32,000 nucleotides of DNA from NCBI RefSeq assembly GCF_000020025.1, contig NC_010628.1, positions 2,040,001 to 2,072,000 on the forward strand, read 5' to 3'. How positions within the stretch are numbered: the stretch's first letter is position 1; the number at the start of each line of letters is the position of its first letter. The notes below the pieces were generated by a model, which ran no database searches, was not told the origin of the DNA, and saw only the letters and a list, made by a program, of their open reading frames with translations. A program made the position numbers and the translations under genes. The DNA is from Nostoc punctiforme PCC 73102 (lineage in GTDB: Bacteria; Cyanobacteriota; Cyanobacteriia; Cyanobacteriales; Nostocaceae). Below, in pieces: positions 1-16,735 of this stretch.

Positions 1-234
1 CATCTCTTGCCTGACACTTTCTGCCCAACGATTATGTTCTTCAGCTTGAATAATCAGATATTCCACATTGGGCGAGTTGTAATCAAATCCGGGAATTTCC
101 ACCCATAAGCTGACCCCTGGCAACCATACGGGATTGATGTGGTAAGGCAATGGCCACGGATCGGCTAAAGTTTGACAGTAGCCGCGATCGCACTTGAAAT
201 CGCTACAAATTAAACCAATTGGACAAGTTGTCAT
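1..234 (-). CDS. hypothetical protein, N-terminal part (gene runs off the left edge)
   Basis: Complement ATG at 232-234. The frame stays open to position 1 (78 codons: MTTCPIGLICSDFKCDRGYCQTLADPWPLPYHINPVW...). It is absent from the ORF track because the window truncates it. No family recognised. Confidence 0.35.
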   Translation of the reverse strand, partial: MTTCPIGLICSDFKCDRGYCQTLADPWPLPYHINPVWLPGVSLWVEIPGFDYNSPNVEYLIIQAEEHNRWAESVRQEM

Positions 235-288
235 TGCAGAGTTAAAAATTGTTTGATTTTTTTAAGTTTTTTAAACCCCGAAAAAATT

Positions 289-519: not shown

Positions 520-1773
520 TTACTGCGACCACCTCCAGCCCAAGCGATCGCCATTTCCTTGTACTTCCCCCAGTCCCCTATCAGCCATAGAAGCAAAGAT
601 GATCCGCACTTCGTCCGGCTGCATACCATCGAATAGTCGGCTAGCTCGGCTGAGATGAGCGGCCTTTAAAACCTCTCCTGGGTGCTGTTGACCCCAGTTA
701 AGGATAAATTGCTCATACTCGTTCATGACCGAGGATTGCGATCGCGCCTCCTCATTTCCCCCGCCGGAGTTTTCCACAGGTGCGCTCGTAGTAGTTCCCC
801 AGTTGCTAAGGTCAAGCTCACAAGGGCAGTCATCGACCATAAACCGCTTTTTACCACCTGCCTTTAACCACTGCTCTAGTTGAGGATCTTTAAGTTTAGT
901 CCTGGCGTAGTCGCGCCCAAACTGCCCCAAACGGACGAGGCAGAAGCAGCTGTAAAGGGTGTCCTTGTCACCTTGTAACCCAAAGTTCTCTGCGGTGTCG
1001 TTTTGGGCCAGCGCACAAATGAATTGTTTGTATCGCCTGCCCCGTTTGGCGTGACGTTTGATCCAGGGGGTGGAATTGTCGCATTCATCCACCAAAACGG
1101 GGAATTCTTCAGCAATCATGAATCGCTCCCGACCGGTAATCGCGTTATCTCCCCCCTCTCCGCGAAGCTCCACAAGCTCCTCTAAGGTTTTGAGGTCATT
1201 ACCCATCGCGGTGTCTATGGCTTTGAAGTTGCCTTTGCGGCCAATGACATCGGCTTGATCCAGCCATGCCCAATCATCTGGTTTAGCGTCGCTGTCGTAG
1301 ACGATGACCCTGCCACCGATTTTGGAGGATAGATACTGGGTAAAGGTTGACTTCCCGTCGCCAGTTCCACCGACTAAGGCGACGTGTTTTTGTTTTTTCT
1401 GGATGTACTCAACTGGATCTGTAATCAGATTCTCTGGTTTCCAGTCTTGGTCAAAACTGCCTACGGTCAAGGCTAACTGTGCAGTGGTCTGTGTCTGGGT
1501 TCTAGCCAAAGCTTGAAAGTTAAGCCTCGATGCTCGGTCAATATCGCCTAGCGACTCCCGCAGTAATTTCGCTGTTTGGCGATGTCTGCGCCCGACTTCC
1601 AAAGTGCCAACTGATGCAGCCAGAACCCAAGTTTTACTCTGTCTGGGCAGCGAAGCACCCAAGGATAGCAGTCCGACGGTGAGAAGCAAGCTTCCCCAAG
1701 ATGACCACTTTGCATAGGCGTACATTTGCAAGTGCTGATGTAACTGTGATGGGTGTAAGTTTTCAGTCATCAC
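520..1773 (-). CDS. membrane-anchored P-loop NTPase, FtsK/SpoIIIE/TraB-like (FtsK-HerA superfamily) DNA translocase candidate
   Basis: 417-aa ORF. N-terminal hydrophobic segment WSSWGSLLLTVGLLSLGASL. Walker A is VALVGGTGDGKST and Walker B is FPVLVDE. AKRGRRYKQFICALAQ follows and resembles the FtsK-family R-G-R...Q motif. Confidence 0.7.
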   Translation of the reverse strand: MMTENLHPSQLHQHLQMYAYAKWSSWGSLLLTVGLLSLGASLPRQSKTWVLAASVGTLEVGRRHRQTAKLLRESLGDIDRASRLNFQALARTQTQTTAQLALTVGSFDQDWKPENLITDPVEYIQKKQKHVALVGGTGDGKSTFTQYLSSKIGGRVIVYDSDAKPDDWAWLDQADVIGRKGNFKAIDTAMGNDLKTLEELVELRGEGGDNAITGRERFMIAEEFPVLVDECDNSTPWIKRHAKRGRRYKQFICALAQNDTAENFGLQGDKDTLYSCFCLVRLGQFGRDYARTKLKDPQLEQWLKAGGKKRFMVDDCPCELDLSNWGTTTSAPVENSGGGNEEARSQSSVMNEYEQFILNWGQQHPGEVLKAAHLSRASRLFDGMQPDEVRIIFASMADRGLGEVQGNGDRLGWRWSQ

Positions 1774-1954
1774 TATCCCTCACGTATTCTTGAGCCTGCT
1801 TTACTACCCTCACTTCAGCTTCCGTGGCCCCAATAAGTGTATTGTCTGGGTAATACTCGCTCAGAATACTAGCAGCATTCTTGGCTAAGTCTTGCGGACA
1901 CCAAGCATCGGTCAAAACGCTGATAATCGCTGACTCAATATCTTTTTTACTCAT
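1763..1954 (-). CDS. small hypothetical protein (63 aa)
   Basis: The ORF overlaps both neighbours (11 nt and 4 nt) in a same-strand operon. No family recognised. Confidence 0.45.
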   Translation of the reverse strand: MSKKDIESAIISVLTDAWCPQDLAKNAASILSEYYPDNTLIGATEAEVRVVKQAQEYVRDSDD

Positions 1955-2313
1955 AACCCCAGTAACACCCCCACAAATATCAATCCAAGGCGGATCAGCA
2001 AGATCGTCTCAATCTCTGGAATGGCTTGCCTGAGATAACAAGCGATAACGCCTGATAACGCCAACATAACCATTACTCCCCAACGAATAAAGCTAGGCAG
2101 GGGAAGCGATACCCAGCTGCTGCTAAAAAGCGCCGGAATCGTTAGAGATGCTGTGAGGTCAAAAGCCAAGTCTGCCAGATTGTCTGGCAGTGCGATCGCA
2201 TTCCTCCATCCTTTTTTAAATTCCTCTAACCGTGACACTTGGGCTGTACTAGCGACTGGGGAATAACCCCGATCGCTGGGAACCTCTACGACTATTTTTT
2301 GCTCATCTGCCAT
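1951..2313 (-). CDS. hypothetical membrane protein (about 120 aa from ATG 2313; ORF track extends to a TTG at 2379)
   Basis: The C-terminal half is strongly hydrophobic (WVSLPLPSFIRWGVMVMLALSGVIACY... LLIRLGLIFVGVLLGL). ATG at 2311-2313 gives MADEQKIVVEV. Confidence 0.55.
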   Translation of the reverse strand: MADEQKIVVEVPSDRGYSPVASTAQVSRLEEFKKGWRNAIALPDNLADLAFDLTASLTIPALFSSSWVSLPLPSFIRWGVMVMLALSGVIACYLRQAIPEIETILLIRLGLIFVGVLLGL

Positions 2314-2421
2314 ACTGCACCTCGATTTTGAGGTAAAACGGGCAATTACTTTCCTGCTTGAGCAGCGCGGCGATCGCAATTACTAAAGCCGCTGTGGTGC
2401 AAATTAGGATCACTGCTTGAT

Positions 2422-2610
2422 TCACTCCTGCTCTTGCTCCTCTTCCTTTTCGCGGATTGCTTTCCAGGTTTGGGGGTAAGTTTTCTTACTCATCCGGCGA
2501 CTTTCTGCCTGGACTTCTGGTGGTTGTTTCTTAAGTTCTTCAGAAATTGCGATCGCGGCAATAAGCCAAGGATTAGTAGTATTATTTTCAGTCATAATTT
2601 TTGACCCCAT
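2422..2610 (-). CDS. small hypothetical protein with acidic C-terminus (likely start ATG 2595)
   Basis: The ORF is in an operon. An ATGACTGA start/stop overlap with the upstream ORF suggests translational coupling. The tail is EKEEEQEQE. Confidence 0.4.
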   Translation of the reverse strand: MGSKIMTENNTTNPWLIAAIAISEELKKQPPEVQAESRRMSKKTYPQTWKAIREKEEEQEQE

Positions 2611-2842
2611 CGCTGTACTGCCCGTAGCCGCTTGTATGAGTGAGTCTTTCCGAGATGCGGTTAATTACTGGGTTTTCGCTTACAGGTAGCGGCTTTCCCT
2701 CAATGTAAGCGGCTGAGATTTCGGCGCATTCCTCAGCGCTTGCGCCATTGCCTAGTAGCTGTCCCTCTGGGAACCCTGCGCGGTGAATTTCGTTACTGGG
2801 ATTTGGCTTTTGAGTCATATAATTTTTGGAGTGTGGTTTCAT
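2588..2842 (-). CDS. small hypothetical protein (alternative ATG at 2818)
   Basis: 84-aa ORF in the same-strand operon. No family recognised. Confidence 0.4.
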   Translation of the reverse strand: MKPHSKNYMTQKPNPSNEIHRAGFPEGQLLGNGASAEECAEISAAYIEGKPLPVSENPVINRISERLTHTSGYGQYSDGVKNYD

Positions 2843-2891
2843 TGATGTGCCGCATCTGGCGATCGCGTATCTGTGCGGATGGCGATCGCCT

Positions 2892-3260
2892 TTAAAAATC
2901 GGCTTTGGTGGCAGTAGTGCTGTTAAAAAGGGTTACAAGCCATATCTGCCAAGTTTTTCGCCTTGTTGGGCTAACTTCGATTGGTTGACGAGTATCAAGG
3001 CAAACTGCCCGTCCGTCATTTAGTTTGACGTAAAGGCTTTTCCCGGTTTTTGACCGAGAAAACAATTGACCGGGTTCTAAAGTTCCAAAGCCTACCTGAG
3101 TTCTGCCTACTACATATTCAGCTTGGTGAGAATCAAATCCCTCTGAGAGCGGATCGTCTGCCATCTCTTTCCACTCTCGTGGTCTGCCTTTGCGATCGCT
3201 CTTGTTGGTGGTCGATCTGCCGTTAGTAATGGCTCGATCTGTTATCTGTTGGTCGGTCAT
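2892..3260 (-). CDS. hypothetical protein (122 aa)
   Basis: ORF in the same-strand operon with a basic N-terminal region. No family recognised. Confidence 0.5.
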   Translation of the reverse strand: MTDQQITDRAITNGRSTTNKSDRKGRPREWKEMADDPLSEGFDSHQAEYVVGRTQVGFGTLEPGQLFSRSKTGKSLYVKLNDGRAVCLDTRQPIEVSPTRRKTWQIWLVTLFNSTTATKADF

Positions 3261-3343
3261 AGTGGGTTACAAATACCTCATGAGTTGGTCGATAGTGCCT
3301 CATTAGTTAGTCACGAGTGCTTCATTACTTGGTCGATAGTGCG

Positions 3344-3691
3344 TTAATAGTCACTCAATAATGTTGGTTGTTTTTGGTCGTCAATTGCTTGTATAGCAAT
3401 AGGTTGAGCGTTTTTTACCTCTTCCTGTTTGGTAGTTTTTTTCTCTCCTAGCAACCAACTTGCGATTTCTACTCCCAGAAATACGAGGTGATATTCGTCG
3501 AGAGAATCGCACACAGCAATGATTTGTTCGGGAATGTCCTCAAAGCAATATTCTTTATGCTGGTAGGCGATTGATGTCTGTTCCCTCAGTGCCAGGAAGA
3601 TTAGACTGTTTAACCCAGTGGCTTGAGCGCGGTTAAAGTTCTGCTCAATGTGGGTAATGATGTCAACTGGTTTTATGTCTGTTAGATTCAT
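3344..3691 (-). CDS. hypothetical protein (115 aa), first gene of the minus-strand operon
   Basis: ORF with ATG start, facing the divergent control region at 3692-4140. Confidence 0.55.
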   Translation of the reverse strand: MNLTDIKPVDIITHIEQNFNRAQATGLNSLIFLALREQTSIAYQHKEYCFEDIPEQIIAVCDSLDEYHLVFLGVEIASWLLGEKKTTKQEEVKNAQPIAIQAIDDQKQPTLLSDY

Positions 3692-3771
3692 GTCGTCTAC
3701 TCTTTCAACGTTATTTACTTGCCGATTGTTTTTGGGATATCCAGGGCACTTGCTCTGGATTTTTAATGGCT

Positions 3772-3896
3772 GCTAACCCCGCGACGCTACGACTTACGGG
3801 TAAAGACAGTTGTTAATGAGACATTTAGCATGGATGAAAGCTACGTGTTCAACCGCTAACCCCGCGACGCTACGACTTATGGGTAAATGCAGTTGT
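3772..3896. repeat. pair of 42-bp direct repeats (3772-3813 and 3855-3896, about 39/42 identical)
   Basis: GCTAACCCCGCGACGCTACGACTTA[C/T]GGGTAAA..CAGTTGT occurs twice, 83 bp apart. Confidence 0.8.
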
Positions 3897-3938
3897 CAGT
3901 TGTCAGTTGTCAGTTGTCGGTTGTCAGTTGTCGGTTGT
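3890..3938. repeat. heptanucleotide tandem repeat (C[A/G]GTTGT x7), STRR-like
   Basis: Seven contiguous heptamers. This is the class of short tandem heptamer repeats known from heterocystous cyanobacteria, but the unit is not identical to the named STRR units I remember. Confidence 0.8.
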
Positions 3939-4140
3939 CACTTTCCCCTAGCAGGTCTTTGGTATTTGCTCAGTGCTGGCAGGCTGCTATCTCTGTCTGG
4001 TTTGGGGTGGTATATCTTAGTTTTGTTCACACATAACTAATGCTAGTATAATGTACGAATGAAACCTGTCAAGCATTCTATTCGTACAAAATAAGTTTCG
4101 TTCATACAATAAAATGGGGGTGTTGTTGTGGTATACGCGA

Positions 4141-4338
4141 ATGGCCAGACCCAAGAAACTAGCAGAAGACTCTATGCGGGCAACTTTTTGGATCAGCGAG
4201 AAGGACTGGGAGGACTTCAGGCTTCAAGCCGAAGCTATGGGACTGAATCGCTCCGATCTAATCAGGTTAATAGCTCAAAGGAAAATCCCCTTGGGCGAAC
4301 AAACGAATACAGAGATACTCCTCCTGGGAAAATCCTAG
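4141..4338 (+). CDS. ribbon-helix-helix (CopG/MetJ-type) DNA-binding protein
   Basis: MARPKKLAEDSMRATFWISEKDWEDFRLQAEAMGLNRSDLIRLIAQ shows the strand-helix-helix pattern typical of RHH proteins. ATG at 4141 is in frame with the track ORF 4114-4338. Confidence 0.65.
   Translation: MARPKKLAEDSMRATFWISEKDWEDFRLQAEAMGLNRSDLIRLIAQRKIPLGEQTNTEILLLGKS
4326..4332 (+). promoter_or_regulatory. candidate -1 programmed frameshift slippery heptamer G_GGA_AAA
   Basis: The zero-frame codons are CTG GGA AAA TCC TAG (stop at 4336-4338). The -1 frame reads GGG AAA ATC CTA GAG and stays open to 4541. Confidence 0.35.
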
Positions 4339-4626: not shown

Positions 4627-4995
4627 TTAGGGGTCTAATTGCGATCGCAGGTCATCCAGTGGTGACTCTAGCTTGTCCTCTTTCTGAGCGGACTCTTGCA
4701 AAAAAACCTCTGGGTTGTCAGGGATGAATTCTAGTCGTATACGAAATCGTCCTTTCTGCCAACCTCCGCCTGTTGTACGCAAAATCTCACACTCTCGCCC
4801 TTGGTCGAAAAACCATTGAGACTCAGCGCCCTTGTTGTTACTGTTCTTGTTTGACCATTGCTCTATTCCTTGAATTAACTGACCAAGCTTTGTCATTTTC
4901 TCCATGCCATAGTCTGCTGTCGTTAATGCGACAACATCATCAGTGGTCAACCCCAACCTACTGTTAGGGTCTAATCCAAATTTTTCGATACTCAT
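4627..4995 (-). CDS. hypothetical protein, possibly KGK-domain family (cyanobacteria-restricted)
   Basis: 122-aa ORF. GGGWQKGRFRIRLEFIPDNPE resembles my memory of the KGK-domain core. The family call is tentative. Confidence 0.5.
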   Translation of the reverse strand: MSIEKFGLDPNSRLGLTTDDVVALTTADYGMEKMTKLGQLIQGIEQWSNKNSNNKGAESQWFFDQGRECEILRTTGGGWQKGRFRIRLEFIPDNPEVFLQESAQKEDKLESPLDDLRSQLDP

Positions 4996-5064: not shown

Positions 5065-5099
5065 CCCAATGCCCAATGCCCAATGCCCAATAACCAATG
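5065..5099. repeat. heptanucleotide tandem repeat (CCCAATG x5, last two degenerate)
   Basis: CCCAATG CCCAATG CCCAATG CCCAATA ACCAATG. Two reverse-orientation units also occur near 401-417. Confidence 0.75.
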
Positions 5100-5393
5100 C
5101 CTATGTTTGGCTTCGATGGTTCTACCAAAGCGATCATTCATTTCCTTGAACAAATCAGGGACAACAAAGAAGGCGACAAGCTTACCCACAAGGAAGTACG
5201 AGCTTATGGAAGGCTGATGTTAAATCTGCTGCCTAATTTGCAAGTCGATAATGACGAACAAATCCAAGTCCTGCTTGCTGCCATGTCCAGTTCTGGGCTG
5301 CCACACTACGATCGCTCCTTCGCGGCGGAACAGATTCTCAAATTGCTCCAGGAGCAACAGCAACGTAAACTCGATTGTCCTGATGGATTTTAA
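5097..5393 (+). CDS. hypothetical protein (98 aa)
   Basis: ORF with plausible composition. Its ATG lies inside the last heptamer repeat. No family recognised. Confidence 0.4.
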   Translation: MPMFGFDGSTKAIIHFLEQIRDNKEGDKLTHKEVRAYGRLMLNLLPNLQVDNDEQIQVLLAAMSSSGLPHYDRSFAAEQILKLLQEQQQRKLDCPDGF

Positions 5394-5553: not shown

Positions 5554-8289
5554 ATGATTTTATCTACTCCTCAAGCAGTCGATACCATTGCATCTCACCA
5601 TTGGGAAGAATGGCAATTAAGTGGTGTATCTGCAAAAATAATACAGCGAAATGTGAGAACCTTATATGACTCTAGAGAAGTCGATAAAGTTCTAAATCGC
5701 AATACAAAATCCAGACAAAAACACTCGGAGCATTTAGTACCTTGCTGGATGGTTTCAGGGGTAAATCCACTGACAGGAGAAAATACATTAGAAGGCGTAC
5801 AAGCAAAACCAGATGTCTCACCATTAGGCAAAGATGGAAAAGTAAACAAGTATTTGGGAGCCGTTGGTTATGGTGCTTCTCCCTTATTTTTGGATACAGG
5901 AGTCGAGTATTGTTGGCAACAAGTCCTCGCTGACAAATCAATCCCTATAATCATTACCGAAGGAGCTAAGAAAGCAGGTGCAGGGTTAACCATCGGACTC
6001 CCAACCATATCTATACCTGGTGTATCGACTTGCCGAAAGATGGGCAGACTTCACTCATGGATAGAAGCCTTTGCTGGATTTGGAAGAACTTTCTACCTAT
6101 GTTTTGACGCTGACATATTACATAAACGTCCTGTCCAGCAATCCTTAATCAACATAGCCAGAGATTTAGCCGCGACAGGTTCAAAAGTTATGGTAATTAA
6201 ATTACCATCAATTGAACTTAAAGGCATGGATGACTTTATTGCTGCTAAGGGAGAAGAAGCTTTCAAGCAACTAATAGAAGATGCCCCAACCATTGAAGAG
6301 TGGAAGAAGGATTTAGAGGAGCAACGTAAAAACGACACAGAATATGATGACGAGGAACGCACATCAAAAGTTTACCGTGCCTACAAAATCATCAGAGATG
6401 GATGGGGCGACAATCTCCGGTTAAACCAACTAAAAAACATCATTGAACTGAACGACCAAAAAATAGAGTTGAATCAATTGCGGCTAGGTATAGCACGGGA
6501 GTTTGACATGGATGTGCAAATAGGAGATGGACAGGCGATTGTTGAGGCGATCGCATCTCAAAATGCTTACCATCCAGTAGTTGAATATCTAGATGAAGTT
6601 GCCGCTAGATATAGTACAGTTGACCCCTCAATTCTTGACAACTTAGCAACTAAATACTTCGGCACTGACGACCCACTTCATAACATTTACCTGAAAAAAA
6701 TGCTGATATCAGCCGTAGCTCGGGCCCGTCGTCCTGGATGCAAAGTTGATACCGCGTTGATCCTGGTAGGGGAACAGGGCATAAACAAATCCAGCTTTTG
6801 GCGTGAGCTTTTCGGGCGGGACTGGTTCACCGACGAACTCAGCGACGGCAACGAGAAAGACGAGCTTATGAAACTGCATAAGTTTTGGGGACTGGAAATT
6901 CCAGAAATCGAACACATGTATAAGAGAAAGGACATCAGCAGCATCAAAAAATTTATGTCTTCCAGTGTTGATGCCTTCCGCGCTCCCTACGGACTTGAGG
7001 TAAAAGAGCATCCCCGCGCTTGTGTCTTGGTCGGAACAAGTAACGAGACAGAACTTCTCAACGACCCCACAGGCAACCGACGATTTTGGATTATCCCTGT
7101 AACAGACGACATCCCAATTGATATCGAGCAGTTAGTCCGAGAGCGGGATTTAATCTGGGCATCTGCCAACGCCCTTTACGAGAAAGGATACCAGTGGTGG
7201 TTATCACCAGCCGAGTCAAAAATTCACAACGAAGCCAGCAAAGACTTCCAATCCGTTGACCCCTGGACAGATACAGTATTGGCTTACGCTCGGCAGCAAG
7301 GAGAGACAACCACCTCTGAAATTTTGAGAATAGCGCTAGGAATTGAACTCGGCAGACAGGAGATGCTTTACACCAAAAGAGTTTCAGCGATTCTCCGATC
7401 CAATGGCTGGGAGCAATATAGACAAAAAATTGGTAATAGTCGCCCCTGGGCTTGGCGATTGAAGTCATCGTCAGAAAACCAAAAAAGTTTGGGTAACAAG
7501 GCGGATCAAGGCAGATCACCCGGATCACTTTTCCAGAATTTTGAACTTGAGACTGAATTAGAAAACCAAAAAAGTTTGGGTAACAAGGCAGATCAAGGCA
7601 GATCACCTGGATCACTTCCCCAAAACCTCCAAAGTGATCCGCCTAGCACTCAACAGAGGCAGATCACACCTGAACCCTTGCAACAAGAGACTTTCGAGCA
7701 TTGTGATCCGCCCGTGATCCGCCTTGATCCGCCTACTTTACCCAACTTTTCTGAAAATAATTTTGTTGTACAAGCGGAAGGAACGACGACTGACACAGAA
7801 ACCAGAAACGAGAGCAGCGCTATCACTTGCCCAGAGAAATGCAGCTATTACAAAACATTTGAGGGTATTAAACCTTTCACATTCAAAGTAGAGTCAGACT
7901 TTGGAGCGGTTGAGGTCAGCGCCGAACCATATCACCGATTCCAAACAAGTGGTGAGAGTAAAATCTGGTTGATATTCAAGACACCGGACGGGCAGGCATT
8001 AACTAAGAGCATTAAGGCAACCCCAGATAAAAAGGTGCTGCCCAGGCTGGCTAAAGAATGTGGTGTCATTCAACAGTGGGAAGAGAAGGTAAGGAAAGAT
8101 TTCAGTTCCAAGGTTGAAAATGCAAGCTATAAATTTAAGGTGCAGATTCTCGGAGATGATGACTACGAGTGGATTGAGGGTTGCATTCTCAAAACTATGC
8201 CCAATCGCCCCTCTGTTAGCCATTTCATCTTTACAACTCCGAAGAAGACAGTTGTCACTTCTCACTTGGGCGAATTTGAGGAGATGTAG
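5554..8289 (+). CDS. replicative primase-helicase: Toprim (DUF3854-like) N-domain fused to a VirE/D5-type P-loop NTPase, plus a repeat linker and an unassigned C-terminal domain
   Basis: 911 aa, with a GGAGGG Shine-Dalgarno upstream. Toprim-like motifs are IIITEGAKKA, FDAD and GMDDF. Walker A is LVGEQGINKSS. VLVGTSNE and DPTGNRRFWIIPV are typical of the VirE/primase-helicase family. A 29-aa unit, ENQKSLGNKADQGRSPGSL, is repeated twice. Confidence 0.9.
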   Translation: MILSTPQAVDTIASHHWEEWQLSGVSAKIIQRNVRTLYDSREVDKVLNRNTKSRQKHSEHLVPCWMVSGVNPLTGENTLEGVQAKPDVSPLGKDGKVNKYLGAVGYGASPLFLDTGVEYCWQQVLADKSIPIIITEGAKKAGAGLTIGLPTISIPGVSTCRKMGRLHSWIEAFAGFGRTFYLCFDADILHKRPVQQSLINIARDLAATGSKVMVIKLPSIELKGMDDFIAAKGEEAFKQLIEDAPTIEEWKKDLEEQRKNDTEYDDEERTSKVYRAYKIIRDGWGDNLRLNQLKNIIELNDQKIELNQLRLGIAREFDMDVQIGDGQAIVEAIASQNAYHPVVEYLDEVAARYSTVDPSILDNLATKYFGTDDPLHNIYLKKMLISAVARARRPGCKVDTALILVGEQGINKSSFWRELFGRDWFTDELSDGNEKDELMKLHKFWGLEIPEIEHMYKRKDISSIKKFMSSSVDAFRAPYGLEVKEHPRACVLVGTSNETELLNDPTGNRRFWIIPVTDDIPIDIEQLVRERDLIWASANALYEKGYQWWLSPAESKIHNEASKDFQSVDPWTDTVLAYARQQGETTTSEILRIALGIELGRQEMLYTKRVSAILRSNGWEQYRQKIGNSRPWAWRLKSSSENQKSLGNKADQGRSPGSLFQNFELETELENQKSLGNKADQGRSPGSLPQNLQSDPPSTQQRQITPEPLQQETFEHCDPPVIRLDPPTLPNFSENNFVVQAEGTTTDTETRNESSAITCPEKCSYYKTFEGIKPFTFKVESDFGAVEVSAEPYHRFQTSGESKIWLIFKTPDGQALTKSIKATPDKKVLPRLAKECGVIQQWEEKVRKDFSSKVENASYKFKVQILGDDDYEWIEGCILKTMPNRPSVSHFIFTTPKKTVVTSHLGEFEEM
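7474..7733. repeat. intragenic iteron-like cluster: two 57-bp direct repeats plus 5 copies of GATCCGCC; 11 GATC sites in 226 bp
   Basis: 57-bp units at 7474-7530 and 7561-7617 are 55/57 identical. GATCCGCC occurs at 7636, 7705, 7716 and 7726, with an inverted copy (GGCGGATC) at 7501-7508. GATC sites are at 7504, 7514, 7523, 7591, 7601, 7610, 7636, 7662, 7705, 7716 and 7726. Confidence 0.8.
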
Positions 8290-8665: not shown

Positions 8666-9007
8666 ATGACCACAGAACCTACACTAGTTCAAATTTTTGG
8701 GGCAGGGGCTGTCCAAGACAGTGCCAGCTTAACTATTCAAAAAGCAGCGTTGACTGCTGTAGGTTTGACAGCTAGCTCAAACAATAGTGCTGAATCATTG
8801 CTAATTGCACTTTTACTCGTAGCTAAAGAAAACCTGACACCAGAAAATCACGATATTAATCTCGATCAATCGGTGACAATCACTAATGGGGTTATCCCAT
8901 CATTTGTGGCACGCGGGACAAGCCAAATCCAATATCGCCAAGATACTTTTACCGTAGCTGTTGAAAAACCAGAAGGTTTAATAGTTATTGACCCAGATGA
9001 TTATTAA
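8666..9007 (+). CDS. paralog family member 1 (113 aa), unknown function
   Basis: Shares the pattern IFGA.A.Q....L.I.KA.L..VGLTAS..N.AE.LL.A.LL.AK..LT and the C-terminal DPDDY with the 10534-10866 product. The N-terminal half also matches the 9007-9375 product. Confidence 0.75.
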   Translation: MTTEPTLVQIFGAGAVQDSASLTIQKAALTAVGLTASSNNSAESLLIALLLVAKENLTPENHDINLDQSVTITNGVIPSFVARGTSQIQYRQDTFTVAVEKPEGLIVIDPDDY

Positions 9008-9375
9008 TGGCTTTTTCAATTTTAAATCTTCAACAAATCTTTGGGGAGAATGCCACACAGGATATTGACACTTTGATAATTAAAAAAAGTGACCTTATTG
9101 GGCTGACAGCTTCTCCTTCAAACACGGCTGAATCTTTATTAGTTGCCATTCTACTACGCGCTAGTTATGCTTTTGAAGGAAGTATCGGGGATGAGCATGG
9201 CAATAAATTATCTGATGAGCATGGCAACTCAATCGGCTACAGCTATAGAACATTTTATGAGTTTCTTAATGTTTTTATTTGGGAGCCAAAATATGTTGTT
9301 AGGGATGAAAATCAACTTTTTATAAAGGACACAATCGTTGCCGAATCCTATTCAAATCTCCCAGCTTGGGAGTGA
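9007..9375 (+). CDS. paralog family member 2 (122 aa), divergent C-terminal half
   Basis: TAATG stop/start overlap with the upstream gene. N-terminus QQIFGENATQDIDTLIIKKSDLIGLTASPSNTAESLLVAILL aligns with members 1 and 3. Contains an internal DEHGN x2 repeat. Confidence 0.7.
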   Translation: MAFSILNLQQIFGENATQDIDTLIIKKSDLIGLTASPSNTAESLLVAILLRASYAFEGSIGDEHGNKLSDEHGNSIGYSYRTFYEFLNVFIWEPKYVVRDENQLFIKDTIVAESYSNLPAWE

Positions 9376-9952
9376 AAAATTACAACCTGATGACACTGAT
9401 TTAATACCCATTCAGCAGGCTGATGGTATTACCAGACATATATCAAAAGAAAATCTGTTTGCTAATTATGCCCCAATATCACAAGCGCCCTCCGGCTCTC
9501 AATACATTCACTTGCAACATACAGTAGCTAGCGGACAGGGAAGTGGAGGTAAACAAAGCGTTCAGTGGACAGCTAGACCAATCAATACAATCAAGTTCGA
9601 TCAGACTGGTTTGGCGCTACTGAGTAATAACACTATTACCCTCCCTGCGGGGATTTATGTTTGTGACGCTGTAGGGCAGTTTTATGATTGTGGACTTATC
9701 AAGACAAGATTGCAAGATGTCACAAACGATGCAACATTAGGGCGTGGTTATTTTACCTACACTAATTGGGGTAGTATGATGTACCTCATTCCCTTAAAAG
9801 CCATATTCACTTTAGCTCAAAGTACTGATATTCAATTACAGTATTTTCAGGCTGGAGGTAATTACGACGGTACTTATAACATGGGTGCGCCGTGGTCTTA
9901 TCCAGGCGTACCGGAAGTTTTCGCAGATATTATATTAGCGAAAATAGGATAG
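9338..9952 (+). CDS. fibre/receptor-binding-like protein (204 aa, TTG start)
   Basis: The N-terminus IQISQLGSEKLQPDDTDLIPIQQADGITRHISKENL resembles the conserved N-terminal anchor of many phage tail-fibre/spike proteins. The C-terminal beta-rich part (ITLPAGIYVCDAVGQF...) is reminiscent of C1q/TNF-like fibre heads. Recognition is by pattern only. Confidence 0.6.
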   Translation: MPNPIQISQLGSEKLQPDDTDLIPIQQADGITRHISKENLFANYAPISQAPSGSQYIHLQHTVASGQGSGGKQSVQWTARPINTIKFDQTGLALLSNNTITLPAGIYVCDAVGQFYDCGLIKTRLQDVTNDATLGRGYFTYTNWGSMMYLIPLKAIFTLAQSTDIQLQYFQAGGNYDGTYNMGAPWSYPGVPEVFADIILAKIG

Positions 9953-9956
9953 TTCT

Positions 9957-10532
9957 ATGAGTTATTGTTTGGTTGATGACACTGCCGCATTACTTACCTA
10001 TACTGACGGCGACAATATTACCAAATCAGTAAAGTTTGTGGGTGCTATGCCGATAGATGTAGAAGTTAACAACATTAACAAAGAACACTTTTTTAGTAGT
10101 GGCAACGCTCCACTAAACCACTTTGCACCAGGCAGCATAACAGCAGTATCTTGTATTGGTAATTTTAGACAAATTGCCAGCAACCCATCTACAGAACTGC
10201 CATGTACTTATATTTTGGATAATGCTTTGATTACTGATAATCGCATTACAGCAGAGTATGACAGTCTCTATAGTGATAATAGCGGCGACATGGATTTTAC
10301 AGTTTCTTATATTTCAACCGAAAATATTATTCGTGCATTTCGTAATGGAGAAATAATTTATAAGGATGTTAGAAAAGCTCCCATTACTTTTAAGGTTGAT
10401 TGTATTAAAGATTCTTGTCCTGATGGATATTTAAAGTGTGAATCCGATAATTATCCCGGATACTGCTGCATTTCCTGCTCCGAACTTAAATCAACTATTG
10501 CAAATATAACTGCTTCTGTGAGGAATAAATAA
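9957..10532 (+). CDS. hypothetical protein with Cys-rich C-terminus (191 aa)
   Basis: ORF 4 nt after the previous stop. The C-terminus DCIKDSCPDGYLKCESDNYPGYCCISCSE has 7 Cys in about 30 aa. Confidence 0.65.
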   Translation: MSYCLVDDTAALLTYTDGDNITKSVKFVGAMPIDVEVNNINKEHFFSSGNAPLNHFAPGSITAVSCIGNFRQIASNPSTELPCTYILDNALITDNRITAEYDSLYSDNSGDMDFTVSYISTENIIRAFRNGEIIYKDVRKAPITFKVDCIKDSCPDGYLKCESDNYPGYCCISCSELKSTIANITASVRNK

Positions 10533-10533
10533 T

Positions 10534-10866
10534 ATGTCCGGTCAATCTTTAGCTTCTGTTTTAGGAGCAAATGCAACTCAAACTAGTTCTACAGTAACAA
10601 TTAGCAAGGCTGACCTCGCATCTGTAGGATTAACTGCCAGTGGAGCCAATGATGGTGAAGCAATATTTGCAGCAATAGTTTTATTAGCGAAACAATATCT
10701 GACAAGTTCTAACCAAGTTGCAATTCCGGCAATTCAAACAATTATTAATGATGTAGCCCAACCATCCTATGTAACTCGCAATGGGCAACTTTATAAGCGA
10801 GATAGCATGACTATTGCCTTTGATAAAGCAACTACAAATCCAGTACTAGACCCAGACGATTATTAA
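10534..10866 (+). CDS. paralog family member 3 (110 aa)
   Basis: Starts 1 nt after the previous stop. Aligns over its full length with the 8666-9007 product, including the terminal DPDDY. Confidence 0.75.
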
Positions 10867-10871
10867 TATTT

Positions 10872-13787
10872 ATGGCTGATTGTTGTTCTCAGATAAGTTC
10901 CCAATTGTCAGCGTTGCAAGCAGCAGTTGCAAATATTAAAGGAGTTAATGAAGATGCAATTGTGCAACGAGTTTTAGGTATTGTTCAGCCGCAAATTAAT
11001 TCTTTAAAATCTCAAGTGGCTGATGTTTACCGTCAAATAGCCCAAGACGCGATCCAAATTGGGAATCTTGAAAGCGAGTTGCACGATTTAGAAGCAAAAT
11101 TAATTGCTTTTGGGGCGGCAATTGCTGGATTAGTAGCCATTGCCGCCGCGCCGCTCATTGCCGCAGCACTTGAAGGTGTGTTTGCAGCGATCGCTGCTTT
11201 AGGGGCTGAAGTCGCTGCTGCTGTGGCATCGGCTGCTGGTCTTCAGGCTGAGATCGTTGTTTTAGAAGCTGAAATTGTGGGAATTGGGGCGACTGCTGGA
11301 AGCGCCCTAGCCCTAGCTACTGCTGCACAAGGCGAAATAGTCGTTTTAGAAGCTGAAATTGTGGGAATTGGGGCGACTGCTGGAAGTGCCTTAGCCCTAG
11401 CTGGAGCTGCTGAAGGTACGGCTGGAACCGCGCTAGCCCTAGCTGGAACTGCTGAAGGTACGGCTGGAACTGCGCTAGCCTTAGCTGGAACTGCTGAAGC
11501 GACGGCTAACTCTGCATTAGGAGCAGCGTTACCAGCATTAACACTGGCCCAAAAAGCAGACTTAACAGCAGATTCGGCATTAGGCTTGGCTGTAGCAGCT
11601 GAAGGAACGGCTGGATCAGCTTTATCAATTGCCGAAATTGCTCAAATTCTTGCTGGCACTGCTGAAGAGACAGCTATTGCAGCAGGCTCTACGGCATCAA
11701 CTGCTTTATTTACGGCTGAAACAGCTATGGCTGAATTGCAGCCAATAGCAGCACAAGTAGAAGCTCAACAGGTGGAGCTTGCATTTTTAGAACCACAAGT
11801 AAAAGTGGCCCTCAATTTGGGAACTGTAGCCGAAGGGGAAGCCGCCGCCGCTCTTGCTGCTGCTGAACTTGCCGAAGGTACAGCAGCGACAGCGCTTCAA
11901 CTTGGCACTGTAGCTGAAGGGGAAGCCGCCGCCGCTCTCGCTACAGCAGAACTTGCGTTAGCGACAGCAGAAACATCACTTGCTAAACCAATTATTCCAG
12001 GCCCTCCAGGACTTCCAGGAGAGCCAGGGGCACAAGGTGAGCCAGGGGCACAGGGAGAGCCAGGGCCACAAGGGGAACCGGGAATTCCATTGCCTCCATT
12101 GCAAGGACTTCCAGGAGAACCAGGGCCGCAAGGTGAGCCTGGCCCACAGGGAGAGCCAGGACCACAAGGGGAACCGGGAATTCCATTGCCTCCATTGCAA
12201 GGACTTCCAGGAGAGCCAGGACCACAAGGAGAACCTGGCCCACAGGGAGAACCTGGCCCACAGGGAGAGCCAGGGCCACAAGGGGAACCGGGAATTCCAT
12301 TGCCTCCATTGCAAGGACTTCCAGGAGAGCCAGGGCCGCAAGGAGAACCTGGCCCACAGGGAGAGCCAGGGCCACAAGGGGAACCGGGAATCCCATTGCC
12401 TCCATTGCAAGGACTTCCAGGAGAGCCAGGGCCGCAAGGAGAACCTGGCCCACAGGGAGAGCCAGGGCCACAAGGGGAACCGGGAATCCCATTGCCTCCA
12501 TTGCAAGGACTTCCAGGAGAACCAGGGCCGCAAGGTGAGCCTGGCCCACAAGGAGAACCAGGGACACCAGGAGAAGTAAACGTGACACCAGAAGAAATTA
12601 CTACTGCAATAACGGCTGGAATAGCAGCAAACTTTCCTCCGATCGCAGGCGAAATATTCTCACATAATTGTGTGACTAATCAAACTGAAACTTACCCTTA
12701 TGGAGGTTTGGGGCTGTATGGATTACAAGCACAAATTCAGCAGGTTAGTAATCAATTAGAATCAGTCAGCAAAACAATTTGCAGGACTTACAGAATTATG
12801 GGTGGTAATGACTGGTTTGAAGGAGAAAATCTTAATCTAAGATTTAATCCAGAACAAACTATAAAATCACAAATAAAAAGTTGTTACCAAGAATCTGCAA
12901 CGCCTCAAGCTGATATTACACCTCAAACAGTTCAAGTTCAGAACTTGCCACAAATGCTTTATAGCCTTCAAGCTGTGACGTGGCGTAGAGAGGGGTTACA
13001 TAAATTACCTATTAATGCGGCTCCTAGCCTGATGCCAAATATTACTCGTAATCCAGCAACAGGGGATATTTTAAATATTAGAGATTGGCAACCTCAAGAA
13101 TATCAAAAAATATCTGATAGCGTCAGTTTTAATGCTTATCAGCTAGGTCAATTCAAAGCTTTTATGGGTGAATTCCCACTTACTATTACTATTAATACGG
13201 AGGAAGGAGAAAAACAGATTTATATGGACAATGTGAGTGATGCCCTAGCAGAATTAGCAGGTATTAGTTTGCTAACGCATAATGATTTAGAAATTAATAC
13301 TCAGTTAGGAGTAAAAACCTTAATTGAAGTAGGAGCAACAAAAAATTCATCACTCATTACTCAAGACATAGCTTTTGCTAATGCTAAATATTTGGGATAT
13401 CAGCTTAACAAGGTTCCTAAATCAGTTAAAACTCTATTTACACCAGGTGAACAAGATATCAAAGCCTTCCTTAAAGAATCAGATCAGCAAATAATTACCT
13501 ACACACACAGAAACGGGCATCTAGAACATAAACTCAATACCTTGCTAATTAGCGCTGGCATCACTAAAGCTGCACTAACTGGTTTTGCGGCTCCAGGTGA
13601 TGATGTTATGGGGAGCATAATCGCTAAATCTGCACTAGGCCAATTTACAGAAAATGCTGATGATTGGAGGAAGTTTTTAGAGTTACTTAATTCTCCACCT
13701 GGTGACATGAAAATTGATGGTATTCCTCAGCTTGTCATTGAAGACATTACCGCTAGAGTTCAAGAACACTTAAGCAAACTAACATGA
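10872..13787 (+). CDS. 971-aa fibre protein: Ala-rich helical repeat region, interrupted collagen-like (G-X-Y) region, globular C-terminal domain
   Basis: The N-terminal third has repeats such as [19 protein letters not shown] x2 and [14 protein letters not shown] x2-3. Positions 12000-12578 encode GEPGPQ-type triplets in six blocks separated by five IPLPPLQ interruptions. About 400 aa of non-repetitive C-terminus follow. Confidence 0.9.
11250..11402 (+). repeat. two 69-bp near-identical direct repeats (84-bp period) inside the fibre gene
   Basis: Positions 11250-11318 and 11334-11402 both encode [23 protein letters not shown]. Confidence 0.8.
12000..12578 (+). repeat. collagen-like coding tandem repeats (93-111 bp units)
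   Basis: Near-identical DNA units encode [32 protein letters not shown]. They also create long spurious ORFs in other frames and on the opposite strand. Confidence 0.9.
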
Positions 13788-14665
13788 AAATTAATCCAGA
13801 TGGCAGCATTGATTTAGAACCTGGTAAAGATTATGTGCAAGTAGGTCAAACTACTCAATATCACGGTGCAAACCGTTGGTACAAAAAGCGTACATTCTCT
13901 AGCCAGTATGCTGAATCATCTGGAAGTGATGGGAAAACTTTACTAGGTAAATTGTTAGGCGGACTTAAAAGATTAGGTGGTTTCGCTCTCTCAATTGCTA
14001 ATGCTTTAGGAATCCAAATTAGTTGGACTTCATTATGGCAATTCTGCCAAATGACATCTTATACAATTTATAACTTTGATTGGAATCAGTCAGATGAACA
14101 ACTAAAAAGTCAAATTGAAGCTATTAATGGGATGATAGCTAATCTTGCAGGCTATATATTAGGTGATGTATCTATTCGTGTGGTAACAGTTGCAGTTATC
14201 GATGGGGTTCCCATCCGCTACCCAATAATTCCAGCAAGATTAGCTGTAGAGATTGCTAGAGAGAAAATTGCTGTTATTAAAGGAGACATCAAACATACAG
14301 CAGGTAAAAATATTGAAAATCAATTTAAATTTGGTATTCAATTAATTGGTCAATTAGGAGCGCAAAACCTTTTTTATCAATCAATTTTATCGCTTCGTAG
14401 CTTAAAAGCATTCGGTTTAGAACCAGTAGAAAAATCTGGTGAACGTTGGTCATTTGCAACAGAAGTTGACAAAAGAATTCAAAGTATTAAACCAAAAGTT
14501 CTTCAAGAGTTTGTTAAAGGATATCTTGGAGGGTTAGAAAATGCGTTTTGGGATCAGGGATATATCTTATCTATGGGATTAGATGATATTTGGGCAATGG
14601 ACGATTTAAGACACGAAGTAAACGACGGCGACCAAAAAGCTGTACGTATTAACCCAGATCCATAA
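13784..14665 (+). CDS. hypothetical protein (293 aa)
   Basis: ATGA start/stop overlap with the fibre gene. Contains a Gly/hydrophobic segment, [29 protein letters not shown]. No family recognised. Confidence 0.75.
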
Positions 14666-14666
14666 C

Positions 14667-15311
14667 ATGACAGGATTAGTAAAATCTCAAGGTGATATTG
14701 TAATTTTCGGTAGGCAGCGAGATATAAAGCTAGCTATTCTTCAGGCTATTTCTGCTCAACGCCAAATCTGGAATAAAGATGTAGGGCAAATTGTGGGGAT
14801 GCCCACCGAAGATTTACCACGAGCCAAGCACATGGATCGGAAGCTTGTGGTACTTTTTAAATCTGTAGAAAAACCACCTTGGCGAATTAATGGGATTAAC
14901 CCTAAAAGTGTGGATTACAGTATTCCAGATTGTAAACAAGGGCTAACATACGAACAAATAAAAGAAATATGCCGCGCTTTTACTTGGGGCAAATTTCGCT
15001 GTACGGCTTTTTTAGACAATGCCCGACAGATGGCAGTATATGCGGCATCAAAGGAAGAAGCTGAGGAAGTAATGCAACGGCTTGTGACCCTTTCAACTGC
15101 TCAGATTATTCGTCTCAGTGTGACTGAAGAAATTAAGGTTAATGTCAACCAGATTAAAATAGCAACTCGCGTTTACCCTTGTTATGCAACCTTGGTTACT
15201 GAACCAACTGATATTTTAGGCGTACCTGTTGGGGGAAAACAAGCTTATAAACGGAGACGACGCAGGCTTGACCTTTACCGACAACCAACTGATTTATCAC
15301 CACTGGGTTAG
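14667..15311 (+). CDS. hypothetical protein (214 aa) with basic C-terminal patch (KRRRRR)
   Basis: Starts 1 nt after the previous stop. No family recognised. Confidence 0.7.
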   Translation: MTGLVKSQGDIVIFGRQRDIKLAILQAISAQRQIWNKDVGQIVGMPTEDLPRAKHMDRKLVVLFKSVEKPPWRINGINPKSVDYSIPDCKQGLTYEQIKEICRAFTWGKFRCTAFLDNARQMAVYAASKEEAEEVMQRLVTLSTAQIIRLSVTEEIKVNVNQIKIATRVYPCYATLVTEPTDILGVPVGGKQAYKRRRRRLDLYRQPTDLSPLG

Positions 15312-15508
15312 ATGTAACAAATATTTACATACCATTTTTACCTAGACGTTTTAATGGACTAGTCAGATTTTCCACCCATAGGGTGGTTACATCCCTAATA
15401 GCTTATAATCCTTGTGCAGTAAGCGGTTTATCTGCCTATAAATTTACTCTTGTCATTCAGTTTCTACATATCATAATTTGTAAAAAGAAATACAAATTAA
15501 TTACTGAT

Positions 15509-15865
15509 ATGACAGCTAGAACCGATCTAACTTTTCAAGAGCTTGAGACTGCCCTTGCTGCTAATGGATTGACAAATGCTCTTACTGTAATTTCTGGGAA
15601 ATTATACGTTGATATTAGTGTAGTTAACGGCGTTACCGTTGCGGATCTAACTGTTGAAGGAGTAGCGGAACTTTTATATAAACTTCGTATTGCTGCTGGC
15701 AATGCTCAATCAACAGTTAACGCTGCTCTTTCAACTGGTGAACAATTGGCTTCTTACCCTCCTTTCAGTTATGGCCCGCCAATAAGCGGCAAAGTTTCAG
15801 TTACTCATGTCTCTACTTTCTTGATTCCTCTCAATGAAAATACAATTACTTCTCCTAACGTTTAA
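15509..15865 (+). CDS. hypothetical protein (118 aa from ATG 15509), possibly a distant relative of the three-paralog family
   Basis: The track ORF starts at 15383, but its first 42 codons look non-coding. MTARTDLTFQELETALAANGLTNALT... has size and helical N-terminal character similar to the paralogs. The similarity is weak. Confidence 0.55.
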   Translation: MTARTDLTFQELETALAANGLTNALTVISGKLYVDISVVNGVTVADLTVEGVAELLYKLRIAAGNAQSTVNAALSTGEQLASYPPFSYGPPISGKVSVTHVSTFLIPLNENTITSPNV

Positions 15866-15915
15866 TTGACTTGAAAAAACGTTTAGTTGGTTTGAACAAT
15901 AATTAGGAGAACAAA

Positions 15916-16503: not shown

Positions 16504-16735
16504 GATAATTATTCTTCCCGGCGATCCGGAGTTTGACTGGACTTTACAAACCTCAATCCCTCCCCTTTGGCGACAAGTAGCTCAACAAGATCCAGACGGT
16601 TTTGCATTTTGCGCTCGTGCTGGATCTGGTGTACTTGAACCAATGACGGATGAAGAATTAGAAGAATACCTTTATGGGGGAGAGTATGACGAACGACTAC
16701 AACAAATAGGGGAAGCTGATTTGGTGCTTACATAA
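16484..16735 (+). CDS. small acidic hypothetical protein (83 aa)
   Basis: ATG start overlaps the upstream gene by 20 nt. TAATG overlap with the downstream gene. Confidence 0.55.
   Translation: MLCSQNRIIILPGDPEFDWTLQTSIPPLWRQVAQQDPDGFAFCARAGSGVLEPMTDEELEEYLYGGEYDERLQQIGEADLVLT

Follow-up and report, generated by a model that had tools for sequence, protein, structure and literature searches.

Transfer and spread of double-stranded DNA (dsDNA) in the TraB/clt/Spd style have been described for Streptomyces, in which TraB is built, in this order, of a membrane-associated N terminus, a motor, and a C terminus that binds direct 8-bp repeats in clt, and in which plasmids carry three to seven spd genes in operons whose stop and start codons overlap (PMC4447253). 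Another motor to be compared here, P9 of the corticovirus PM2, is a structural protein of a virion with an internal membrane (PMC1950889). To place a little-known operon among such systems, we analyzed a stretch of 32,000 nucleotides from the chromosome of Nostoc punctiforme PCC 73102 (NC_010628.1, positions 2,040,001 to 2,072,000; hereafter the window, in whose positions all unlabeled coordinates are given). The operon, which ends in the gene of a 417-aa ATPase, is part of an integrated mobile element of ~19 to 20 kb. Our tentative interpretation is that it may serve as the DNA export module shared by a family of plasmids and integrative elements of Nostocales, namely, as a sequence-directed dsDNA pump that would work by analogy with TraB and clt and without a type IV secretion system (T4SS). 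A previous sequence-only reading of the window had raised TraB-type transfer and viral packaging as competing ideas.

The operon comprises eight minus-strand open reading frames (ORFs), from position 3691 down to 520, with the ATPase gene last and a repeat array behind it:
3344..3691, minus strand: 115-aa ORF, head of the operon, 42 to 82% identity in about 25 loci
2892..3260, minus strand: 122-aa protein, first conserved gene of the operon family, 33% identical to the 120-aa protein of plasmid L054 (E 4e-6)
2588..2842, minus strand: 84-aa ORF, 60 to 85% identity in many loci, also on plasmid L054
2422..2610, minus strand: 62-aa ORF, conserved in about 10 loci
2303..2425, minus strand: 40-aa single-span membrane peptide (Kyte-Doolittle score 2.82), 57 to 90% identity in many loci
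1951..2313, minus strand: integral membrane protein of 120 aa, accompanying the ATPase more constantly than any other partner, hydrophobic spans at residues 72-98 and 97-120
1763..1954, minus strand: 63-aa ORF overlapping both neighbors, conserved in few loci only
520..1773, minus strand: 417-aa ATPase of the FtsK-HerA superfamily, with a hydrophobic N-terminal helix, a long helix, a RecA-like core, a disordered linker, and a C-terminal winged helix
289..518, no strand assigned: array of nine YGYCTACAG motifs, cluster I at 469-518 and cluster II at 289-376

The last six ORFs are chained by five overlaps of stops and starts (84/62, 62/40, 40/120, 120/63, and 63/ATPase), while the first two junctions are gaps. 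The seven overlapping same-strand genes of the sequence-only reading were thus right in strand and in overlap, except for these two gaps and for the 40-aa ORF, which had gone uncounted. The 120-aa protein, already taken for an integral membrane protein in that reading, indeed has two clear hydrophobic spans, and it adjoins the ATPase in nearly all close loci as well as on plasmids L054 and L008. Judged by eye, a 103-aa membrane protein directly upstream of the L074 ATPase may be its analogue, and a 61-aa ORF in L054 and a 49-aa ORF in plasmid pDU1 may be analogues of the 40-aa peptide. The L054 120-aa protein is in turn 45% identical to a 110-aa protein of pDU1 (E 4e-21), and judged by these sequence matches the first operon gene is conserved across the whole family, from the 122-aa protein of the window through the 120-aa protein of L054 to the 110-aa protein of pDU1. 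The genes of the operon are regarded as real, considering that the ATPase gene has a ratio of nonsynonymous to synonymous substitution rates (dN/dS) of 0.07 to 0.14 against eight chromosomal relatives with unsaturated dS, that none of the 12 ATPase copies examined contains an internal stop codon, and that the 122-, 120-, 84-, and 40-aa partners recur beside the ATPase in most of about 60 related loci.

The 417-aa product is identical to a hypothetical protein of Nostoc punctiforme. Its AlphaFold (AF2) model, built on 28 homologues with a predicted local distance difference test (pLDDT) score of 79.5, consists of a helix at residues 8-39, a long helix at 44-94, a RecA-like core at ~110-325, a disordered linker at 327-348, and a winged helix at 352-414. 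The following segments were located:
1648..1710, minus strand: presumed membrane anchor (residues 22-42), a conserved hydrophobic helix (model helix 8-39), by hydropathy
1345..1371, minus strand: Walker A motif GGTGDGKST (G135-T143), invariant in the 28 homologues
1105..1122, minus strand: probable Walker B motif F218-M-I-A-E-E223, aligning with IVEE of PM2 P9
1003..1047, minus strand: arginine/sensor segment K243-R-G-R...A-Q257, typical of FtsK-HerA ATPases, aligning with RKGRKYGVQLYVATQS of PM2 P9
532..720, minus strand: C-terminal winged helix (H-S-H-H-S-S, residues 352-414), by DSSP topology of the model (pLDDT of 82 to 90 there)

Two of the three motifs named in the sequence-only reading, the GGTGDGKST P loop and RGR....LAQ, were confirmed by their conservation, the latter with K243, G245, R246, Q250, A256, and Q257 invariant in the 28 homologues. 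The third, LVDE as Walker B, is doubtful: it varies in the homologues (LAD- in several), A221-E-E-F-P225 being invariant instead, and this invariance together with the alignment to IVEE of PM2 P9 indicates that A221-E-E223 is the probable Walker B. The Walker A, Walker B, and Arg/Gln segments all align with those of PM2 P9 and pIJ101 Tra. A hydrophobic stretch of 17 to 19 residues near the N terminus (around residue 25) was found in most family members examined, distant ones included, and the best N-terminal Kyte-Doolittle score over such a stretch averages 1.86 in the 28 homologues. Over 69 aa, the winged helix shares 35% identity with the C terminus of a DUF3987 helicase (L100, 14411-14620), and a DNA-binding module appears, from this sequence match, to be shared between pumps and replication proteins. 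No sequence similarity of the C-terminal domain was detected to FtsK gamma, to the C terminus of pIJ101 Tra, or to the primase of the window.

In a Foldseek search of the PDB with the model, the FtsK motor 6t8b ranked first (E 5e-5), followed by EccC/EssC, HerA (SIR2-HerA), VirB4, and the STIV2 packaging NTPase B204. Among viral models (BFVD), the best match was an unnamed 384-aa viral protein (A0A345MZL5; E 2e-15, 363 columns) covering the whole ATPase model, and FtsK-like phage proteins and A32-like packaging ATPases, like all named viral proteins, ranked far behind it. Profile-profile comparisons (hhalign) were made with small family alignments built from public records, and shuffled controls gave nothing. 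The ATPase family matched PM2-type P9 (E 9e-10, 128 columns) and Streptomyces Tra/TraB (E 1.6e-6, 160 columns) across the whole ATPase core of each, P9 matched TraB (E 1e-7, 151 columns), and TraB matched FtsK (E 8e-16, 222 columns). The TrwB, VirB4, and VirB11 profiles aligned with the ATPase at the P loop only (33 to 35 columns for TrwB). Likewise, single-sequence scans of the ATPase with Pfam, PHROG, NCBIfam, and PADLOC gave P-loop-level matches only, with PF01580 (FtsK_SpoIIIE) reaching 14.4 bits (E 0.026), short of its cut-off of 24. The best PHROG was phrog_2666, the PRD1/PM2 P9 family (E 0.003 for the window ATPase, 3e-6 for the homologue on plasmid pCC7120zeta, and 7e-7 for pIJ101 Tra), whereas the FtsK/SpoIIIE PHROGs had no match to the ATPase and matched pIJ101 Tra at 1e-148 and 3e-25. 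A hidden Markov model of the 28 homologues found only ABC-transporter P loops among PDB sequences. An exhaustive HMMER search with clustering at 50% yielded 190 relatives at E ≤ 1e-10, the best 150 of which were mostly 300 to 500 aa long, with some shorter fragments.

Considering fold and profile comparisons together, the 417-aa protein is a compact member of the FtsK/TraB/P9 neighborhood of the FtsK-HerA superfamily, and the earlier description of it as FtsK-like holds. The closer kinship with TraB that had been proposed needs to be qualified: with a sub-cut-off PF01580 score and no FtsK/SpoIIIE PHROG match, the protein is not a member of the TraB family, and its distance to TraB is no smaller than that to the packaging ATPases of PM2 type. 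The sequence-only reading had named ParA, AAA+, and Zot as placements that would tell against it, and the profile and structure searches pointed to none of them. The protein falls within neither ParA nor AAA+; as for Zot or inovirus pI, no Zot Pfam match was obtained, the one Zot structure (E 4e-3) ranked below the FtsK-like matches, and an inovirus setting does not fit an element encoding a primase-helicase and not a rolling-circle Rep. A known antiphage defense system was also rejected, as the PADLOC matches, to HerA and mad8, reached no further than the P loop (E of at least 0.002). Thermus TdtA, a HerA-like protein of 64 kDa paired with NurA, was considered and discarded as a relative. In a literature search, no publication on this ATPase-operon family was found.

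A repeat array lies directly 3' of the ATPase gene. The window has 13 copies of GYCTACA, against 5.5 expected, and 9 of them lie within the 230 bp at 289-518. The array opens directly at the ATPase stop codon, and its first four copies follow one another every 11 nt (Tandem Repeats Finder period, 11). Read in the sense of the ATPase gene, cluster I has four forward copies and then one reverse copy, and cluster II, ~100 nt beyond, has two forward copies, an A/T-rich palindrome, and two reverse copies. This layout recurs in about 55 loci whose ATPases are 55 to 100% identical to that of the window. It is independent of the next gene, which may be the integrase, the 3' end of a gene module to be described below (module X) in L001, or unrelated genes in the Calothrix plasmid L008, in which the central palindrome is not conserved. 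The free plasmids L054 (4574-5574) and L008 (10019-10243 and 11242-11465) have two GYCTACA arrays, with one directly after the ATPase gene and the second 0.6 to 1.2 kb further, against a single two-cluster array in the integrated element of the window. The sole exception among close members is L053 (2950-3400; 60% identity), in which the 3' end of the ATPase gene is rearranged, the reading frame is extended, and no array follows.

The array moreover appears to belong to the ATPase and not to the element backbone. An ATPase-free element of Leptolyngbyaceae (L097/98) has primase (53%) and integrase (47%) of the same families as the window element, as well as module X, and has no array. The winged helix of L065/66 is divergent, and those copies that could be placed by eye against the copies of the window read CTAGAC, not GTAGAC. 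Distant homologues with a different C-terminal helix-turn-helix have different arrays, GTATAAC in eight copies and TGTACACC in eight copies. Both the absence of ATPase and array from L097/98 and the change of the array alongside the winged helix or helix-turn-helix tie the array to the ATPase.

The sequence-only reading had named a conserved chromosomal housekeeping cluster of all Nostocales as a finding that would refute it. The distribution of the operon is instead patchy, sometimes multicopy, plasmid-borne, and next to integrases. A tblastn search of 72,556 plasmids found the operon in filamentous cyanobacteria only, and the named cyanobacterial hosts of the family all belong to filamentous genera, except for two metagenome-assembled genomes labeled Chroococcales. 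Three of the plasmids are as follows:
L008, 23.8-kb Calothrix plasmid: also encodes ParA and a PriCT-2 primase
pNOS7524.02 = pDU1 (L010), 6.4 kb, Nostoc PCC 7524: operon at 568-2677, RepA, small recombinase
pCC7120zeta (L009), 5.6 kb: ATPase homologue at 2957-4129

The pDU1 operon runs 110-aa gene, small ORFs, 49-aa transmembrane ORF, 377-aa ATPase gene. Over the core, the pDU1 and pCC7120zeta ATPases are 42% and 39% identical to that of the window, and both plasmids are typed "non-mobilizable." Further plasmids with the operon come from Tolypothrix, Moorena, and Pseudanabaena. A 12.29-kb contig of Nostoc CHAB 5715 is circular, with a 127-nt end overlap and ~89× coverage versus 20 to 29× for the other contigs of the assembly; it encodes only ribbon-helix-helix proteins, the operon, a Xer-like recombinase, and a 1118-aa putative primase-type protein, and an 11.07-kb Spirirestis circle resembles it. 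In addition, a tyrosine integrase was found within 10 kb of an intact ATPase gene in more than 40 loci. Pfam and PHROG scans of the proteins of the window element revealed no relaxase or T4SS genes, as had been noted before, and no relaxase, oriT-type, or T4SS gene was seen in any related locus examined.

The resemblance to the Streptomyces TraB systems (Tra/KilA; pIJ101, pSVH1-type plasmids, and actinomycete integrative and conjugative elements [AICEs]) is one of architecture. Common to both are a membrane-associated N terminus (presumed for Nostoc), an FtsK-like motor, and a C-terminal domain for DNA recognition (for Nostoc a putative one, the modeled winged helix); an array of short repeats (8 to 9 bp) at the motor gene's 3' end; genes for small, poorly conserved membrane proteins that overlap in stops and starts; residence on small plasmids and on integrase-plus-replicase elements without relaxase or T4SS; multicellular filamentous hosts; and ATPase cores that align, as given above. 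On the other hand, the Nostoc protein has 417 aa versus about 630 to 770 aa for TraB, misses the PF01580 cut-off, and has a winged helix without detectable homology to the TraB C terminus; the motor gene closes its operon, whereas that of pIJ101 opens with it and goes on with spdA, spdB, and kilB; the array, unlike clt, includes inverted copies; and the host has a Gram-negative-type envelope, the Nostoc module being known from sequence. The TraB/AICE-type architecture previously suggested is partly borne out by the integrase, the primase-helicase, and the small overlapping membrane genes, without TraB family membership, and the winged helix and the conserved 9-bp array, in parallel to the TraB C terminus and clt, carry the likeness further than that reading had. 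The module is to be likened to TraB/clt in its proposed working and to P9 in its sequence, and it is not a PF01580 member and does not agree with the packaging ATPases in context and architecture.

A mechanism can be proposed on this basis. The 417-aa FtsK-type ATPase would form a ring held at the cytoplasmic membrane by its N-terminal helix, and its C-terminal winged helix would read the YGYCTACAG array directly 3' of its own gene, thereby loading the motor ring. The motor may then pump the dsDNA of the element through a conduit formed with the 120-aa and 40-aa membrane proteins. We infer that the most likely destination would be a neighboring or contacting cell, that is, T4SS-independent transfer or spread comparable to that by TraB, clt, and Spd in Streptomyces. 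Another cell is suggested because the module is kept by integrated elements, which need neither partition nor dimer resolution, because it coexists with ParA, and because it is the only candidate transfer function on the "non-mobilizable" plasmids.

Several observations weigh against this export reading. By profile comparison, viral P9 is a slightly nearer relative of the ATPase family than TraB is, and the Pfam matches to FtsK_SpoIIIE, DUF87, and TrwB are below the cut-offs and confined to the P-loop region. Anchoring is read from hydropathy only, and the score of the window ATPase itself is modest (1.61). By sequence, the winged helix could not be linked to FtsK gamma or to the C terminus of Tra, and its resemblance to the C terminus of a replicative helicase suggests that the array may be origin-like. 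The convergence of the motif copies would suit a site of recombination or segregation as well. Moreover, in distant subfamilies (L074 and L076) a small gene whose product may bind DNA is situated within the repeats, and the arrays of Trueperaceae precede parA, which makes the partner binding the repeats uncertain. Finally, the filamentous-host pattern comes from searches limited to fairly close relatives.

The remaining genes of the element have to be introduced before the alternatives are weighed. That the element is integrated is concluded from an integrase on its left, a primase-helicase and module X to the right, and ordinary two-component and regulatory genes beyond:
1..237, minus strand: 179-aa ORF with its start within the window, adjoining a 394-aa tyrosine integrase just outside the window, left end of the element
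4045..4072, minus strand: promoter-like TTGACA-16-TATACT upstream of the operon, 11 of 12 consensus positions, by consensus match only
4114..4338, plus strand: 74-aa ribbon-helix-helix-like regulator of the element backbone, divergent from the operon, weak RHH_1 and NikA-like matches
4627-4995, minus strand: KGK-domain protein (Pfam E 1.4e-15), a cyanobacterium-specific family
5554..8289, plus strand: 911-aa primase-helicase (DUF3854 plus VapE-like; Pfam E 7e-75 and 2e-32; PHROG helicase/primase families), the replication gene of the element
8666-17386, plus strand: module X, twelve ORFs without family assignment
8666-9007, 9007-9375, and 10534-10866, plus strand: three module X paralogues ending in DPDDY
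10872-13787, plus strand: module X 971-aa protein with coiled coil, hydrophobic stretch, and collagen repeats
15916-16503, plus strand: module X 195-aa protein, the most conserved of the module, with an internal duplication xWGSxPKPPRASK...GWxI
Also in module X: a 204-aa tail-fiber-like protein (phrog_24210, E 2e-6) and a Cys-rich 191-aa protein

On contigs with an identical ATPase, the left flank consists of the 179-aa ORF, the 394-aa tyrosine integrase (Phage_integrase), and then a host molybdopterin oxidoreductase. The integrase (locus L004, 1915-3625, left of window position 1) also has a faint Arm-DNA-binding match. The attachment sites of the element were sought, and the sole shared sequence was one unconvincing 10-mer. 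Rfam and tRNA scans of the window gave no matches. The KGK-domain gene is found again in the control regions of related elements, the ATPase-free L097 among them. The control region is rich in repeats, which are probably operator- or origin-type sites: a 22-nt unit in three copies between the 115-aa and 122-aa genes (3276-3342), a 42-nt pair (3772-3813/3855-3896), CAGTTGT in 7.3 copies between the divergent operons (3890-3940), and CCCAATG in 5.3 copies upstream of the primase block (5065-5101). Inside the primase gene, a direct duplication of 66 nt (92% identity; 7473-7538 and 7560-7625, plus strand) yields a tandem ENQKSLGNKADQGRSPGSL peptide repeat in a C-terminal extension. In module X, a collagen G-X-Y array (11900-12670, plus strand) inside 10872-13787 shows 96-nt and 18-nt periodic DNA repeats, with 10 copies in register, and three long spurious ORFs overlap it in other frames.

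Module X might specify a surface apparatus or else a virion of unknown type. Relatives differ by swaps of the putative receptor-binding parts, and one relative carries an M15 peptidase and a malectin domain. The 195-aa protein has 107 homologues (109 to 229 aa, mostly 191 to 212 aa) across cyanobacteria, including Myxosarcina, Xenococcaceae, and nonfilamentous members; its AlphaFold model is confident (pLDDT 93.9) and shows no jelly roll, and as nothing in the PDB matches it in fold (lowest E 1.9), the protein is a candidate new fold.

Such a module raises the alternative, which we consider unlikely, that the ATPase packages the genome of a membrane-containing virus or vesicle-type particle, with the motor anchored in an internal or vesicle membrane, the array as a pac site, and the particle supplied by module X or a helper element. 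The closest profile match is indeed the packaging ATPase of PM2 type, phrog_2666 is the best PHROG for both the window ATPase and the pCC7120zeta homologue, and PM2 P9 and the ATPases of PM2-like prophages share with it the Walker A motif, the next strand YD.D, a Walker B motif ending in EE, and KRGR...Q. The PRD1 P9 gene adjoins two small "DNA packaging" ORFs, P20 and P22 (42 and 47 aa), which are small membrane proteins. The tail-fiber-like and collagen-repeat proteins of module X, together with the peptidase and malectin domain of its relative, would suit a particle, and many relatives lie on contigs of 14 to 22 kb. However, P9, of ~220 aa, is ~200 aa shorter than the window protein with its presumed anchor helix and its winged helix. 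Streptomyces Tra matches phrog_2666 equally well. P9 genes lie close to the double jelly-roll capsid gene P2, and no such gene stands beside the Nostoc ATPase; capsid, portal, and terminase families were not found by Pfam or PHROG among the proteins of the element, nor does the best-conserved module X protein model as a jelly roll. Neither the ATPase, for which tblastn was run even at E 10, nor the 195-aa protein has relatives in IMG/VR or in the GenBank phage records (50,697 for the ATPase), so that no viral members of this cyanobacterial ATPase family are found. Moreover, the operon resides on plasmids of 5.6 to 12 kb without a structural module, and pDU1, pCC7120zeta, and the 12.29-kb and 11.07-kb circles have no room for a capsid module. 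Conversely, module X occurs in other cyanobacterial elements without the operon, such as a ~20.6-kb element in which primase and integrase belong to the families of the window element, an FtsK-like ATPase is lacking, and Walker A is seen in the primase alone. As each occurs without the other, a module X particle is unlikely to depend on the ATPase as its obligate packaging motor, and packaging for the adjacent module, the competing idea of the sequence-only reading, is weakened and disfavored.

Plasmid maintenance is, in our estimation, quite unlikely. A membrane-tethered FtsK-like translocase would act here on oriented repeats for segregation, or for resolution or excision by a tyrosine recombinase, following the logic of FtsK, its orienting polar sequences (KOPS), and XerCD/dif. 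FtsK is the best match among solved structures and has the same order of anchor, motor, and C-terminal winged helix, and FtsK and SpoIIIE recognize short oriented motifs (KOPS and SpoIIIE recognition sequences [SRS], respectively) with a tyrosine recombinase nearby, as a short motif array and a recombinase are also present here. A tyrosine recombinase is nearly always near: the 394-aa integrase is directly next in the window element, and recombinases of 177 to 193 aa in pDU1, L008, L074, and L001 and of 336 aa in L054 were found. The motif copies converge (>>>> <, then >> A/T palindrome < <), as KOPS do on dif. Nevertheless, integration has left the array unbroken, at a distance of 1.7 kb from the end of the element, and it is therefore not attP; it lies 7 to 8 kb from the recombinase in L001 and L008, and its palindrome is not conserved in L008, a plasmid with its own ParA. 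The integrated copies of the ATPase gene that were examined, for which partition and dimer resolution are unneeded, remain intact, with strong purifying selection in the eight that were measured. The protein itself differs from FtsK in having one hydrophobic helix versus four, a RecA-like core of only ~215 residues, too small to accommodate an alpha domain of FtsK type, a plasmid-borne gene, and only remote sequence similarity.

An accessory role in replication, with the array as an iteron-type origin and the ATPase as a membrane-tethered origin-binding initiator or helicase loader, is improbable. Homology of the winged helix to the C terminus of a DUF3987 replicative helicase, direct repeats with an 11-nt period beside A/T-rich DNA, and the two arrays on plasmids L054 and L008 would agree with it. 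A dedicated primase-helicase or Rep is, however, already encoded in most of the replicons examined (the window element, L054, pDU1 with its RepA, and pCC7120zeta; L074 has only a 273-aa candidate), L097/98 has the same primase family and no array, the motor fold is that of FtsK-type dsDNA pumps and not of initiators, and the ATPase travels with membrane proteins. Least credible of all is a type IV coupling protein (VirD4/TrwB-like) feeding a T4SS encoded elsewhere: VirD4, TrwB, and TcpA, likewise encoded by mobile elements, do combine an N-terminal membrane anchor with an NTPase of FtsK-HerA type, NCBI records label some homologues [quoted passage not shown] and TrwB_AAD_bind matches weakly (E 0.074), but this match and the short TrwB profile alignment cover the P loop only, the all-alpha domain is missing (417 aa versus about 500 to 600 aa), none of four so-named homologues matches any NCBIfam coupling-protein model above noise, and the relaxase, oriT-type, and T4SS partners are absent as described above.

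Returning to the export reading, a bolder form of it, which we hold to be possible rather than probable, is that multicellular cyanobacteria have their own T4SS-independent conjugation or spread of dsDNA on pDU1-type plasmids and AICE-like elements. Its motor would be a nonviral, membrane-anchored cousin of the PM2/PRD1 ATPases that reads a clt-like 9-bp array, such replicons would be of the kind from which double jelly-roll viruses could have captured their motor, and module X may represent a new type of virion or surface apparatus.

The standard shuttle vectors of Anabaena and Nostoc are based on the pDU1 replicon. About a third of pDU1, and of its relatives, is taken up by an unstudied operon around a putative FtsK-type pump. 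Should dsDNA be moved between cells by the module, this would represent the first relaxase-free transfer of TraB style outside the Actinomycetota, in another multicellular lineage, and possibly a second, independent case of relaxase-free dsDNA transfer in a multicellular bacterium. Such transfer, if true, would explain the spread of "non-mobilizable" cyanobacterial plasmids and integrative elements. Furthermore, the packaging ATPase of double jelly-roll viruses has been described as a later addition captured from an unidentified source (Krupovic et al. 2022; PMC8812541), and a plasmid-borne family standing between TraB/FtsK and P9 bears on what that source may have been.

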